64,000 bases of DNA from Escherichia coli (GCF_044324785.1 NZ_CP172127.1); one strand, 5' to 3'; counted from the first letter of the stretch, positions 31,428 through 41,975 are shown. Numbers and translations: made by a program. Notes: generated from the sequence alone by a model not told the origin.

Positions 31428-31588
31428 AATTCAAGTTTTCATGCTTATCTGTACGTCTCTATTTGTTTACGATTCAGTAAGTTAGCGTGAAAATCCTTCC
31501 CGGTGCGTATCTGGTTTTCTCTCTGTATCGGGATAATTTGGTGGTCAGATCTGGGGTCAGTTTGGTTCGATTCTGGAGTGACCCCCAA

Positions 31589-32850
31589 ATGTCTTTAAAC
31601 GATTCTAAAATCCGCAAGTTAAAACCCTCTTCCCGTCCGGTAAAACTCTCCGACTCTCACGGTCTGTATCTGCTCGTCAATCCGGGCGGTTCACGCATCT
31701 GGTATCTCAAATATCGTTTCAACGGAAAAGAATCCAGAGTCAGTCTTGGCGCATACCCGCTTGTCTCACTGGCAGAAGCCAGGCAACAGCGCGACGGTAT
31801 CCGTAAGTTACTGGCGCAGAATATCAACCCGGCGCAGCAGCGCATGGCGGAGAAAGCGGCCTGCTCCCCTGAAAAGTGCTTTAAGGCAGTGGCGCTGGCC
31901 TGGCACAAAACCAACAAAAAATGGTCGGCTGATTATGCCGCCCGTATTCTCGCCAGTATGGAAAACCATATCTTCCCGGCGATTGGTCATCTGCCAGTTG
32001 CCACTCTTAAAACGCAGGATTTACTGCTTTGTTGCGGGTTATCGAGGATAAAGGCTTTCTGGAAGTCGCGTCCCGAACCCGGCAGCAACTCAGCAACATC
32101 ATGCGCTATGCCGTTCAGCAGGGGCTTACCGAAAGCAATCCGGCGCAGCATCTGGATGGCGTTGTCGCCTCACCCGTAAAGAATCACTACCCCGCGTTAC
32201 TGCTGGAGCGGTTGCCCGAACTGCTTGGCCGCATCGGTGACTATCAGCAGGGCCGGGAGTTAACACGGCTGGCGGTGGTGCTGACGTTGCACCTGTTTAT
32301 CCGTTCCAGCGAACTGCGTTTCGCCCGCTGGAGCGAGATCGATTTCAGGCACAAAATCTGGACCATCCCCGCCACCCGCGAGGCAATCGACAAAGTACGG
32401 TTTTCGGGGCGTGGCGCAAAAATACGTACCCCGCATATCGTGCCGCTCTCCCGCCAGGCGATTGCCATTCTGAAACAGATACAGGAGCTTTCCGGCCATC
32501 TGGATCTGGTGTTTCCCGGTGATCATAACCCGTACAAGCCAATGAGTGAAAACACCACCAACCGGGCGCTACGCCTGATGGGGTATGATACGAAAACTGA
32601 AATCTGCGGGCATGGACTCAGGGCGATGGCCTGTAGCGCCCTGGTGGAATCGGAGCTGTGGTCACGCGATACGGTGGAGCGGCAAATGAGCCACCAGGAG
32701 CGTAACAGCGTGCGGGCAGCCTATGTGCATAAAGCGGAGCATCTGGAGGCCAGAAAGGCCATGATGCAGTGGTGGTCGGATTATCTGGATGTGTGCCGCG
32801 AGGGGTATGTTGCGCCGTACATTTATGCCCGGCAGCATAAGGCAGCCTGA
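31589..32850 (+). pseudogene. P4-family tyrosine integrase, disrupted by a frameshift near nt 32030
   Basis: N-terminal part (MSLNDSKIRKLKPSSRPVKLSDSHGLYLLVNPGGSRIWYLKYRFNGKE..) is in frame 2 (ORF 31487..32179); the catalytic part (..RFSGRGAKIRTPHIVPLSRQA..HGLRAMACSAL..RAAYVH..) is in frame 1 (ORF 32029..32850). Confidence 0.85.
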
Positions 32851-32989
32851 ATCAGAAATAGCGGAAATCATTAAAAATGTAAAAGCAGATCCTGATTGAC
32901 CGGGATCTGCTTATTGTATTGAGAAGTATTACCATTTTTCTGTTATTATCAATCGGAAAGTATCTAAAAATATTTGTCCCCAAATAATT

Positions 32990-33420
32990 TTGGTGAAAAC
33001 CAATCAATAAACCATTTATCAATAGGTAAGTACCGGAAATTATTCCAGTAGAATATTTTCAGGCGATTGCCTATTAATAAATACATTATTGATAGATAAG
33101 TGCCTTCTGTGATTTGCCCGCAAATCACAGAAGATGAAAACCTATCAATACGGGATATTTTCACGGAAATACCAATTAATACTCCAGAATATCTCCTGAC
33201 CATATACTCTGAAACCTGTAAGAACTGCATCAGATATTGAGAGACCATATAGATATAAGTGTGAAATTATTTTGTTTCCAATGATTTCAGGCGAAAACCT
33301 ATCAATGCATCTGTTTTCAATAGGCAGCCACCTTCCGTGATTAACATGTTAATCACGGAAGGTGAAAAGCTATCAATAATCGATATTTTCACGGAATTAC
33401 CACTTAATACATCCCAAAAA
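32990..33420. repeat. Array of palindromic sites with GTGATT-N-AATCAC cores and repeated TATCAATA motifs
   Basis: cttctGTGATTtgcccgcAAATCACagaag at about 33104-33133 and ccttccGTGATTaacatgttAATCACggaagg at about 33329-33364, each followed by gaaaa(c/g)ctatcaata...gatattttcacggaa; a third site gaGTGATTacagggtAATCACt lies at about 34005-34027. Confidence 0.6.
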
Positions 33421-34189
33421 ATGCGCCATAAAATACCGGGCAATCTTTCCTGATACACATTATCACTGCACCAGCTATACAGAGACAAAATAATCTGCAC
33501 CAGCCCCTGTAAATCGGTTATCTGTGCCAGTGTCCCGCCGCTCTACCTGTTCAGGGTTGTGCCAGTTTCTGGCCCTTTGGTTTTCGGCCCTTTCCGGTCA
33601 GGCGCTGTTACCCTTATTGCCCCTTAACCTTTATGACCCTTTCCCTTTCTGACGCAACCAGTTTATTTTGAAATGCTCCATGACAGTCTGCACCAGACTG
33701 TATTTTCACCACAGGATAACGATCACAAAGTGCAAAAAAATAACATGAAGCACCGAAGATTGTTAATCTATATGTAGCAGGTAATGATGTCAAAAACTGT
33801 CGCAGCATTTTTTATAAAATTATGAGACATTCTGTGGGCATATAATATATGTCACAAGATGCAGGAAAACAAAGAGAGAGTTTTCAGATATAATCCTGCG
33901 TCAGAATTAATGTGATGCCCCGGTGAATTTACATTTTAAAATTTCCCTGTCCCGTAATATCGGTAAAAACGATTGAAACACCAGCTATTAATCGGGAACG
34001 TTTCGAGTGATTACAGGGTAATCACTATAATATCCCGGCAAACTATATTGGTTAAGCAGGAGAATCTGATCAGTTGATACTTATTCGTCATGCTGTAACG
34101 ATATTTTCACAATATAAACCCGTTCGCCCCCTGCGCCAGATCCGGTACAGAGGGTACGATAAATCGCTGTCGTTACGCAGTAACGTACT

Positions 34190-39800: not shown

Positions 39801-41062
39801 ACCACTACGACAGCCAGCACCGTCTGGTGTTCTACACGCGGATACAGCATGGCGAGCCACTGGTCGAGAGCCGCTACCTCTACGACCCGCTGGGACGGCG
39901 AATGGCGAAAAGGGTATGGCGGCGGGAGCGTGACCTGACGGGGTGGATGTCGCTGTCGCGTAAACCGGAGGAGACATGGTACGGGTGGGACGGCGACAGG
40001 CTGACGACGGTGCAGACTGACACCACGCGTATCCAGACGGTGTACCAGCCGGGAAGCTTCACGCCGCTCATCAGAATCGAAACAGACGTGACCGAACTGG
40101 AGAAAGCGCAGCGGCGAAGCCTGGCGGAGAAGTTACAGCAGGAAGGGAGTAAAGATGGTCACGGCGTGGTGTTCCCGCCTGAACTGGTGCGGCTGCTGGA
40201 CAGGCTGGAGGGGGAAATCCGGGCAGACCGTGTGAGTGACGAAAGCCGGGCGTGGCTTGCGCAGTGCGGGCTGACGGTGGAGCGGCTGGCGGCACAGATC
40301 GAGCCAGTTTATTTGCCTGAGCGAAAAATACATCTTTATCACTGCGACCACCGGGGACTGCCGCTGGCGCTTATCAGTACTGAAGGTGCAACGGAATGGC
40401 GTGGGGAGTATGACGAGTGGGGGAATCAGCTTAATGAGGAGAACCCGCATCATCTGTTCCAGCCATACCGCCTGCCGGGGCAGCAGTACGATGATGAATC
40501 GGGGCTGTGCTATAATCGTTATCGTTACTACGAGCCGTTACAAGGGAGGTATATTACACAGGACCCGATTGGGTTAAATGGGGGGTGGAATTTATATAAA
40601 TATCCGCTGAATCCAATAAATTATGCAGATCCTCTTGGCTTAGCCGTAGATATAAACCACTTCCCAGTCAACGAAGACATACGAAATTATGCAGAGAAAG
40701 TTTGGAATAATCCTAATATCATTACAATTGGAACACATGGTGATCCTCAATCAGTATATGATGAAAATTATAATAAGATAGATGTCAAGACATTAGCTAA
40801 TGAGGTTCGAAATCATCCTAAATTTAAACCTGGAATGTCAGTAAGACTGTTATCCTGTAATACAGGAAAAGGAAATAACTCTTTTGCACAGCAATTGGCA
40901 GATGAACTAGGTGTGAGAGTCTATGCTCCTGACCAATATGACTGGTACTATTCAAATGGTAAGGTAGAGCCTTGGGGAGGATTCTATGATGCAAACAATC
41001 AATTGCAAATGGACACGAATCAGCCTGGACATGAGTTTACATTCAAGCGAAGGAAACCATAG
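36881..41062 (+). CDS. Rhs-family polymorphic toxin: N-terminal PAAR-like domain, YD-repeat core, variable C-terminal toxin domain
   Basis: 1393 aa; N-terminus [38 protein letters not shown] (PAAR-like); many YD repeats (..RYRYDDIGR.., ..YEYDRFGQ..); core ends in the PxxxxDPxGL motif ([14 protein letters not shown]); SD AAGGAT upstream. Confidence 0.95.
40643..41059 (+). other. Variable C-terminal toxin domain of the Rhs protein (139 aa, low GC)
   Basis: Sequence after [144 protein letters not shown]. Clear drop in GC relative to the core. Confidence 0.8.
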
Positions 41063-41064
41063 GT

Positions 41065-41667
41065 ATGAGGTATTTTCTCTTTATATTTATAACAATCCCC
41101 CTTATCTCTGGAGGTCATATGAGTAATGATAGCGAAAAGATAATATCAACATATTCGCTCAATTTTTTATCACCAGATGATGTGAGGAAAGAAGAACTTA
41201 AGGCATCACAAGGTGATAGTGATGCTGCATTTAAATTGTACAAATATTACCTTTTTTGCGAGCCAAAATCATACAGAAAACAGCACGAATGGTTAATAAT
41301 ATCGGCAAATAATGGAAATGCTATAGCTCAATATAACTTATCAAGAGAACTTGAGTCAGAAGGAAAAGTAGATGAATCAATACAATGGCTGAAAAAATCA
41401 GCGGAACATGGTAATAATTATGCACAATATCAGATGTCAAAATATTTATTAAAAATAGGTGATATTAGAGGATCGGAATATTATCTAAACTTATCTGCGG
41501 ATAACGGATGTGTATTTGCAATAAAAGATATTATCAAAAATATGATGGATAGTGGAAGGTACGATGACGCCCTCATTTGGGTTGAAAAATTGAAAAAATT
41601 GTATCCTGACACAAATACCGAACTTTACATACAAAAAATAACGCAGAAAAAAAAGCAATCCAAATAA
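41065..41667 (+). CDS. Putative cognate Rhs immunity protein with Sel1-like repeats
   Basis: Starts 2 nt after the rhs stop; AT-rich; Sel1/TPR-like repeats (..GNAIAQYNLSRELESEGKV..SIQWLKKSAEHGNNYAQYQMSKYLL..). An alternative start ATG at 41119 has a strong GGAGG SD. Confidence 0.7.
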   Translation: MRYFLFIFITIPLISGGHMSNDSEKIISTYSLNFLSPDDVRKEELKASQGDSDAAFKLYKYYLFCEPKSYRKQHEWLIISANNGNAIAQYNLSRELESEGKVDESIQWLKKSAEHGNNYAQYQMSKYLLKIGDIRGSEYYLNLSADNGCVFAIKDIIKNMMDSGRYDDALIWVEKLKKLYPDTNTELYIQKITQKKKQSK

Positions 41668-41955
41668 TAATTATATATAATTACTCGCACAGAGTTACAG
41701 TATTGCAAGAAATATATCTAGCATATAAAGTCGCCGCCAGTAAAGATAAAGTACTGTGTAATCCTTCCTCCCATATAGGGGTAAAAACTTAGCATCCAGT
41801 GCCCTCGACTTAATTTTTAGTATTTTCTCTGTGAAGTGACACTTCGTAGGATTCAGTTCATGTTTACCAGAAAAAAGGTGGTCATTCTGGTGGTCTTGAC
41901 AATCTCGATTTTTTGTTTTAGCTTTCCAATCAGCCAATTAATGGCTACGGCGATC

Positions 41956-41975
41956 CCAGTCAGAGGAGCCAAATT
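41956..41975 (+). repeat. Island right-end direct repeat (attR): copy of the tRNA-Asn 3' end
   Basis: ccagtcagaggagccaaatt is identical to the 3' end of asnW plus 4 nt of flank (31412..31431). Confidence 0.8.

Follow-up and report, generated by a model that had tools for sequence, protein, structure and literature searches.

Boundaries of the island and its target tRNA gene

We analyzed a stretch of Escherichia coli DNA of 64,000 nucleotides (GCF_044324785.1 NZ_CP172127.1; referred to here as the window), in which a genomic island lies immediately 3' of an intact tRNA-Asn gene, asnW. The island carries an intact rhs gene, whose variable C-terminal tip has the predicted fold of a cysteine protease, and a candidate immunity gene directly after it. 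Between the tRNA and rhs there are a decayed tyrosine integrase of the P4 type, an AT-rich spacer, the remnant of a second recombinase with an EFASI RNA motif, a small regulator, and a conserved 153-amino-acid protein preceded by a C4-like antisense RNA (Table 1). The tRNA was identified as asnW from the gene order, which is nac, cbl, asnU (-), yeeO, asnW (+), the island, yeeN (-), amn, shiA, ..., asnT (-), mtfA, serU. All four tRNA-Asn genes are within the window and have identical 3' halves, and asnW is the only one of them that is occupied. The high-pathogenicity island (HPI), the pks island and CP4-44 were not present in the interval of the window that contains the four tRNA-Asn genes.

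The ends of the island are marked by an exact 20-bp direct repeat, CCAGTCAGAGGAGCCAAATT, one copy of which takes in the 3' end of the tRNA. Imperfect similarity around the repeat extends to 53 nt at 77%. We estimate that about 6e-5 repeats of a 20-mer would be expected by chance within 11.5 kb. The content of guanine plus cytosine (GC) swings between 35% and 66% inside the island, compared to about 47% in the flanks. The arm of the island next to the right-hand repeat is kept even where the toxin tip differs, and similarity between islands at different sites stops directly after AAATT.

These boundaries agree with an earlier reading of the sequence (the original prediction), which had proposed an island of about 10.5 kb 3' of an intact asnW, a 20-bp copy of the tRNA 3' end at 41956-41975, and the ancestral terminator of the tRNA followed by yeeN. 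The two copies of the repeat are 10,544 bp apart, and the right-hand copy is located at exactly that position. In an alignment with strain MS14386, which has an empty site, the left flank and the tRNA are joined directly to the sequence found 3' of the right-hand repeat. A hairpin with a T-run, common to the empty site, precedes yeeN; it has a folding energy of -16.8 kcal/mol (z = -4.3). It was recovered by folding, and a simple terminator scan made no call there because the loop is longer than 8 nt. The contents that had been proposed were recovered as well, as an integrase of the P4 type by domain architecture, a broken second recombinase together with a small Ner/SfsB-like regulator, and an intact Rhs protein with an adjacent gene containing tetratricopeptide repeat (TPR)/Sel1-like sequences. 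The original prediction was silent on the pseudogene state of the integrase.

The record of strain N3 (NZ_CP031609.1) matched the window at 100.0% over 11.5 kb. There were a few 1-nt indels between the two, which shift the coordinates by one base between 27195 and 29528 and between 35221 and 35713. The gene amn (43478-45088, minus strand) is an uninterrupted open reading frame (ORF) in the window and is flagged as frameshifted in the N3 record; several such flags in that record, including those on tssA and vasL, two type VI secretion system (T6SS) genes, may be assembly errors. In this lineage the intergenic flank between asnW and yeeN (41976-42450) shares about 92-93% identity with its counterpart in most E. 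coli, a greater divergence than in the adjacent genes, which are about 98% identical.

Table 1. Features of the island and of the tRNA-Asn genes, numbered from the first nucleotide of the window
Feature	Position	Strand	Remarks
asnV	27119-27194		tRNA-Asn, unoccupied in this strain
asnU	29528-29603	-	tRNA-Asn, unoccupied in this strain
asnW, tRNA-Asn (GTT)	31352-31427	+	Intact, integration target; ARAGORN; Rfam tRNA 72.6 bits
Left 20-bp direct repeat (attL core), CCAGTCAGAGGAGCCAAATT	31412-31431	+	Last 16 nt of tRNA-Asn plus AAATT
P4-type tyrosine integrase, pseudogene	31589-32850	+	Split into ORFs 31487-32179 and 32029-32850
AT-rich stretch	32851-34213		GC 35-42%; no conserved ORF
Second tyrosine recombinase remnant	34214-34795	-	Phage_int_SAM_2 + Integrase_1 type; broken by deletions
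EFASI RNA motif	34851-34978	-	Rfam RF02957, 100.8 bits (gathering score 51.2)
Ner/SfsB-like helix-turn-helix regulator	35713-35901	-	62 aa here, 84 aa in strain 1190
Conserved 153-aa protein	35898-36359	-	Predicted four-helix bundle; widespread in Enterobacterales
C4-like antisense RNA	36413-36501	-	Rfam RF01695, 62.2 bits (gathering score 45)
Candidate a1/b1-type target	36546-36598	-	RF03163, 43.8 bits, just under the threshold of 46.7
Rhs core	36881-40642	+	N-terminal PAAR-like motif, DUF6531, YD-repeat shell
Rhs C-terminal toxin tip	40643-41062	+	139 aa, AT-rich; predicted clan-CD cysteine-peptidase-like fold
Candidate immunity gene	41119-41667	+	182 aa, TPR/Sel1-like; directly after toxin
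Right-end arm (~100 bp) plus attR core	41860-41975	+	Arm conserved at asnW, asnU and asnT islands
Right 20-bp direct repeat (attR core), CCAGTCAGAGGAGCCAAATT	41956-41975	+	Exact match to left copy
Ancestral hairpin and T-run 3' of asnW	~42033-42068	+	Outside island; identical in empty site
yeeN	42420-43136	-	Beyond island and hairpin
asnT	57228-57303	-	tRNA-Asn, unoccupied in this strain

The Rhs protein, its toxin tip and the candidate immunity gene

The rhs gene is an intact ORF of 1393 codons. The protein scored 2592 bits with the NCBIfam model RHS_core (cut-off 2000) and also matched DUF6531 (3.6e-20) and RHS_repeat in Pfam. The core ends at the PxxxxDPxGL demarcation at residues 1245-1254. 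This motif corresponds to nucleotides 3733-3762 of the gene, and DNA homology to the rhs genes of other islands ends at nucleotide 3741.

The tip that follows has a predicted caspase-like alpha/beta fold with a His-Cys dyad. The two residues, His32 and Cys72 of the tip (His1286 and Cys1326 of Rhs), are conserved, and each follows a hydrophobic strand. Starting from a few close homologues, a profile of the tip reached 3577 cluster representatives, among them giant multi-copy proteins as well as C-termini of long toxins. The neighbors of the tip in the AlphaFold Database are the ends of Rhs toxins, VENN-type toxins and toxins of the type VII secretion system (T7SS), labelled DUF4347 or peptidase C80. 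The fold of the tip is confidently predicted to be that of a clan-CD cysteine protease of the C80/DUF4347-like kind, and its activity is probably that of a cysteine peptidase of this clan.

The candidate immunity gene has a GGAGG ribosome-binding site 5 nt before its ATG, and no signal peptide was predicted for the protein from that start. The Prokaryotic Genome Annotation Pipeline (PGAP) labels the product a tetratricopeptide repeat protein or a sel1 repeat family protein; matches to the TPR and Sel1 families of Pfam are weak, and in PHROG the protein falls in one family of unknown function. Searched as one unit with the tip, the gene accompanied it throughout, in 91 genomes.

Decay of the integration module

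Integrase ORFs begin 60-160 bp past the tRNA. Aligned to the intact 420-amino-acid gene of strain 1190, the integrase of the window differs by three substitutions and by the loss of 1 nt after position 32022. Intact copies have the domain architecture Arm-DNA-bind_3 + Phage_int_M + Phage_integrase, match PHROG 1 and have a weak DNA match to P4 int. The gene beside the tRNA is therefore of the right type by descent but is frameshifted in the window. PGAP flags it as frameshifted in N3 and also in ST2747 and MLI106K3, and because the latter two are independent assemblies, the frameshift is not an assembly artefact.

The second recombinase is also broken. It has deletions of 10 nt and 99 nt compared to the copy in strain 1190, which is itself annotated as frameshifted. 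Intact copies elsewhere are 294 amino acids long, and the homologue in strain G3/10 matches Integrase_1 of Pfam at 1.8e-60. The 1-nt deletion in the integrase and the damage to the second recombinase have probably cost the island its mobility in this strain, and it would be fixed in place.

Non-coding RNAs, regulators and the AT-rich spacer

The remainder of the backbone consists of RNA motifs, small regulators and a spacer. The EFASI RNA is located directly 5' of the second recombinase, as has been described for this motif, which is known to associate with integrases. Its frequent companion, the STAXI motif, was not found in an Rfam scan at E <= 0.1.

The Ner-like regulator matched the NCBIfam model SfsB at 6e-26, which is below the model cut-off, and the 84-amino-acid copy matched the transcriptional repressor family PHROG 769 at 6e-29. 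The 153-amino-acid protein has 318 homologues and no family in Pfam, PHROG or PADLOC. Its AlphaFold2 model (pLDDT 83) matched generic helical bundles only. Where the gene model of a homologue is longer, its label is ash family protein (PF10554), and translation of the RNA region may account for the extra part.

The C4-like RNA lies 5' of the gene for the 153-amino-acid protein and the Ner-like regulator, in a module that is divergent from rhs. This arrangement looks like a switch of the P1/P7 immI style ahead of the 153-amino-acid gene and the regulator, and the roles of the RNAs and regulators are inferred. Just upstream of the C4-type RNA there is also an isrK-like match near threshold. A match to the manA-II motif at the right junction was discarded, with 30.9 bits against a threshold of 100.

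Two imperfect copies of a 131-nt direct repeat (33052-33182 and 33280-33410) lie in the AT-rich stretch, as does a 42-nt palindrome. Over 1.3 kb, the stretch is 93-94% conserved between islands. No gene is annotated there in most of the related strains examined, and one hypothetical protein is annotated in O145 FWSEC0002. We considered a set of paralogous small ORFs at 32964-33500 as possible genes and rejected them, as related islands have stops within them and they are probably non-coding.

Distribution among genomes and insertion at several tRNA-Asn genes

Most E. coli have an empty site. Using a 728-bp probe that spans the unoccupied site and requiring that at least 80% of it be covered, we found the junction between tRNA-Asn and yeeN uninterrupted in 5266 of 5426 complete genomes (97%). 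This is a count of unoccupied tRNA-Asn-to-yeeN junctions, not of asnW as defined by yeeO, and it takes in pks-positive strains with an inversion in this region. In the same set, a probe for the right junction of the island with yeeN was fully covered in 67 genomes; the presence of this 10 kb between asnW and yeeN in most E. coli, which the original prediction had named as its refutation, was therefore not observed. The same toxin/immunity island was located between asnU and cbl in 23 genomes. At least 80% of an 11.5-kb query was covered in 88 genomes, a number that over-counts occupancy of asnW because it can include copies at asnU; counted by junction, there are 67 genomes at asnW and 23 at asnU. 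The stretch encoding the toxin tip and the immunity protein was found in 91 genomes and was chromosomal in every case; this number exceeds the 67 occupied asnW junctions because 23 genomes carry the island at asnU.

The element is not specific to asnW. Strains G3/10 and 2014C-3655, which were examined in detail, carry the island at asnU, with no insertion at asnW and with both recombinases intact. Islands with the same backbone were found at asnT, between mtfA-asnT and yeeJ, and at asnV there was an integrase remnant, 94% identical and cut by IS1. The backbone is also present in a Salmonella record, in the corresponding yeeO-amn region. The backbone was absent from plasmid and phage records, except for a 473-kb Salmonella record that is labelled a plasmid and looks like a chromosome.

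Comparison of the sequences indicates that the islands at asnU and asnW are independent insertions. They differ by 6-7% over most of their length, which exceeds the divergence of 1.4-1.7% in yeeO, cbl and yeeN of the same strains. In addition, an inversion between asnU and asnW flips yeeO only and cannot bring an island that lies beside yeeN over to cbl. The divergence is mosaic. Between N3 and G3/10, identity was 92-95% in the integrase region, 98-99% in the regulator module, 86-93% in the Rhs core, and 99-99.7% across the toxin tip, the immunity gene and the right arm. Islands at asnT have an unrelated tip and immunity gene on an Rhs core that is 90% identical. We therefore conclude that modules have been exchanged between islands, or that conversion by other copies of rhs has altered the Rhs core.

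The original prediction had also named asnW as the site of the colibactin pks island in some strains, and this was confirmed in a pks-positive strain, 82.0311. In that strain (2120-6428) two tRNA-Asn genes flank an inversion of the nac-cbl-asnU-yeeO block. The tRNA-Asn beside yeeN is consequently an unoccupied one, and the pks island (clbS, clbQ, clbP, clbO, clbN) adjoins the yeeO-proximal copy. The identical tRNA-Asn copies thus also serve homologous inversion. We considered whether the 5266 empty sites conflict with the known presence of pks at asnW and rejected this, since the inversion in pks-positive strains accounts for it.

Type VI secretion and the cargo of sister islands

The genome of N3 has a full tss cluster, with hcp and vgrG and with another rhs, at aspV. 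Strain PCN033 also carries the island, and its T6SS is reportedly functional (PMC4882540). In all examples of sister islands with complete cargo, the cargo was related to T6SS. There were three types of cargo among the islands at asnT: another Rhs tip; a DUF2169/DUF4150 effector set; and tssF, tssG and vgrG with a PAAR protein. In the asnT island of NCTC9087 (18186-23143), an AAA ATPase and an ABC-three component system come after a T6SS effector cassette. Both are candidate anti-phage defense genes, so the same platform can perhaps carry defense cargo too.

A model for the island and its alternatives

Taken as a whole, it is very probable that the locus is a small integrative island of the HPI/pks integration type, with an Rhs/immunity pair as cargo, which has since become a fixed locus. 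In this model, recombination by the P4-type integrase across the core CCAGTCAGAGGAGCCAA(ATT) would have brought a circular element into a tRNA-Asn gene at its 3' end, regenerating the tRNA and leaving the 20-bp repeat at the far end. Because this 3' end is common to all four tRNA-Asn genes of E. coli, members of the family could land at asnT, asnU, asnV or asnW, depending on the strain, and here the site would have been asnW. The element would consist of a conserved backbone (the integrase, the AT-rich spacer, the EFASI RNA with the second recombinase, the Ner-like regulator, the 153-amino-acid protein and the C4-like RNA) and of swappable cargo. We infer that Rhs would ride on the VgrG spike of the T6SS and free its 139-amino-acid C-terminal tip in neighboring cells, and that the adjacent cytoplasmic TPR/Sel1-like protein would shield sister cells. 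The deletion in the integrase and those in the second recombinase would then have left a vertically inherited locus in this lineage.

Several observations weigh against parts of this model. No excisionase or transfer genes were recognized in the island, and excision, a circular form and transfer have so far not been observed. At the N-terminus of Rhs, the Pfam PAAR_motif match is weak (E = 0.26 over 24 residues), with the residues P-A-A-R present at positions 5-8. In sequence searches, the tip had no Pfam match better than E = 0.12, no match in NCBIfam, PHROG or PADLOC, and none to any PDB chain with either the single sequence or a profile; its proposed activity comes from the predicted fold. 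The immunity gene was assigned by its position. In the N3 record, tssA and a gene with a VasL domain are flagged as frameshifted, so delivery by the T6SS may not work in this strain; the flags could be assembly errors.

Some features of the backbone would also be expected of a decayed P4-like phage satellite or prophage remnant that was once packaged by a helper and captured the Rhs cassette later. These include the P4-type integrase with its weak DNA match to P4 int, the C4-like antisense RNA of the P1/P7 immunity type, the ash label on longer homologues of the 153-amino-acid protein, and the membership of the Ner-like repressor in a phage family, PHROG 769. The genome of P4 is 11.6 kb, near the 10.5 kb of the island. 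We consider such an origin improbable, because neither the island nor its intact relatives have a primase/helicase (alpha) or genes for capsid size or transactivation (sid, psu, delta), and because every complete relative examined carries T6SS-related cargo, not phage genes. Across 50,697 phage records, nothing of the backbone matched apart from the integrase and a few short pieces. The 153-amino-acid protein had one match in these records, to a 1.5-kb fragment that carries no annotation, and P4 had no match to it. Matches to PHROG were likewise limited to integrases, a repressor and the family of unknown function that contains the immunity protein.

A different question is whether the Rhs/immunity pair is an exported weapon at all, or has a mainly intracellular role, stabilizing the island or modulating growth in the manner of an addiction or toxin-antitoxin-like module. 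The persistence of the island despite a dead integrase and the frameshift flags on two T6SS genes of N3 are consistent with an intracellular role, and RHS elements in Salmonella are reported to behave as type II toxin-antitoxin-like modules (PMC7043789). An intact delivery scaffold of 1393 residues, with a PAAR-like N-terminus and DUF6531, would be needless for such a module, and the sister islands carry other T6SS effector sets and structural genes. The presence of the island in PCN033, with its reportedly functional T6SS (PMC4882540), also argues for export. We therefore give little credence to an intracellular module. Even less probable, to the point of being very hard to maintain, is that the segment is ancestral at asnW and was lost elsewhere, or that it was moved by homologous recombination between tRNA copies rather than by an integrase. 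Copies of tRNA-Asn do recombine, as in the inverted nac-cbl-asnU-yeeO block of the pks-positive strain. In strains with the island at asnU, though, yeeO keeps its orientation and the island is beside cbl, and an inversion would have left it beside yeeN. This geometry, together with the divergence between the asnU and asnW islands (6-7%, against about 1.5% in the flanks), already largely refutes this explanation. The identity of the repeat with a known att core, the 97% of genomes with an unoccupied junction between tRNA-Asn and yeeN, and the atypical base composition of the island also speak against it.

The integrative-island model can be extended. The backbone might be an undescribed, dedicated shuttle of T6SS effector/immunity cassettes among the four tRNA-Asn genes and into Salmonella, with the antisense RNA and the repressor forming a phage-style switch that controls excision or expression of the weapon. 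We regard this extension as speculative and rather unlikely. If it were true, the shuttle would be a site-specific horizontal route for rhs, beyond the proposed exchange of tips by homologous recombination. In full-text literature on asnW with Rhs and on asnT with type VI secretion, we found no description of this island or its backbone.

In this strain the island is an ordinary and probably immobilized accessory locus. Its wider value is as a well-bounded example of an entire rhs toxin/immunity gene moving on an integrase-driven island, which would be one route by which such weapons spread among E. coli lineages. The same tip and immunity gene (99-99.7% identical), found on islands with Rhs cores 7-14% apart at different tRNA-Asn genes, are a natural record of module exchange. 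The tip family is large and largely uncharacterized, its 3577 cluster representatives including the ends of Rhs toxins, toxins of the contact-dependent inhibition type and T7SS toxins, and with its predicted clan-CD protease fold it is a reasonable biochemical target.

Comparison with known systems

The integration of this island is like that of HPI and pks. All of them target the 3' ends of tRNA-Asn genes, and the 20-bp repeat contains the 17-bp HPI-type att core, CCAGTCAGAGGAGCCAA (PMC2801613, Table 1). The sequence beside the att core is similar on both sides, the integrase is of the P4 type (71% protein identity to that of the pks island), and more than one asn tRNA copy is used. In contrast, HPI and pks are about 30-54 kb in size and carry genes for siderophore or polyketide synthesis, whereas this island is 10.5 kb and carries a T6SS-type Rhs effector and immunity pair. 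Its backbone also has an Integrase_1-type recombinase, the EFASI RNA and the C4-like RNA, and its integrase is inactive here.

The tip resembles clan-CD domains, namely the C80 cysteine protease domains of MARTX and TcdA and the DUF4347 T6SS effector (PDB 9qpe, chain G), in its conserved strand-His-Gly and strand-x-Cys motifs. Its AlphaFold Database neighbors with DUF4347 or C80 labels are, as noted above, toxin ends. At 139 amino acids, the tip is much smaller than the clan-CD domains compared. In sequence it matches neither DUF4347 nor Peptidase_C80 of Pfam, nor any chain in the PDB; the likeness is one of predicted fold.

As an Rhs protein, the effector is close to RhsA-E of E. coli and the rhs of Salmonella SPI-6. 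It shares the GC-rich RHS_core (84-85% DNA identity to rhsD) and the PxxxxDPxGL demarcation, followed by an AT-rich variable tip and an immunity gene. As in those systems, tips have been swapped between similar cores, which fits the C-terminal displacement model (PMC2935791). Unlike them, the whole rhs gene is inside a repeat-bounded element that carries an integrase and occupies varied tRNA sites, and there is no vgrG or H-rpt/ISAs1 beside it. The carriage of rhs genes on genomic islands has been described already, as has displacement of their tips (PMC2935791). The island thus combines integration like that of HPI and pks with a standard Rhs cargo of the E. coli type.

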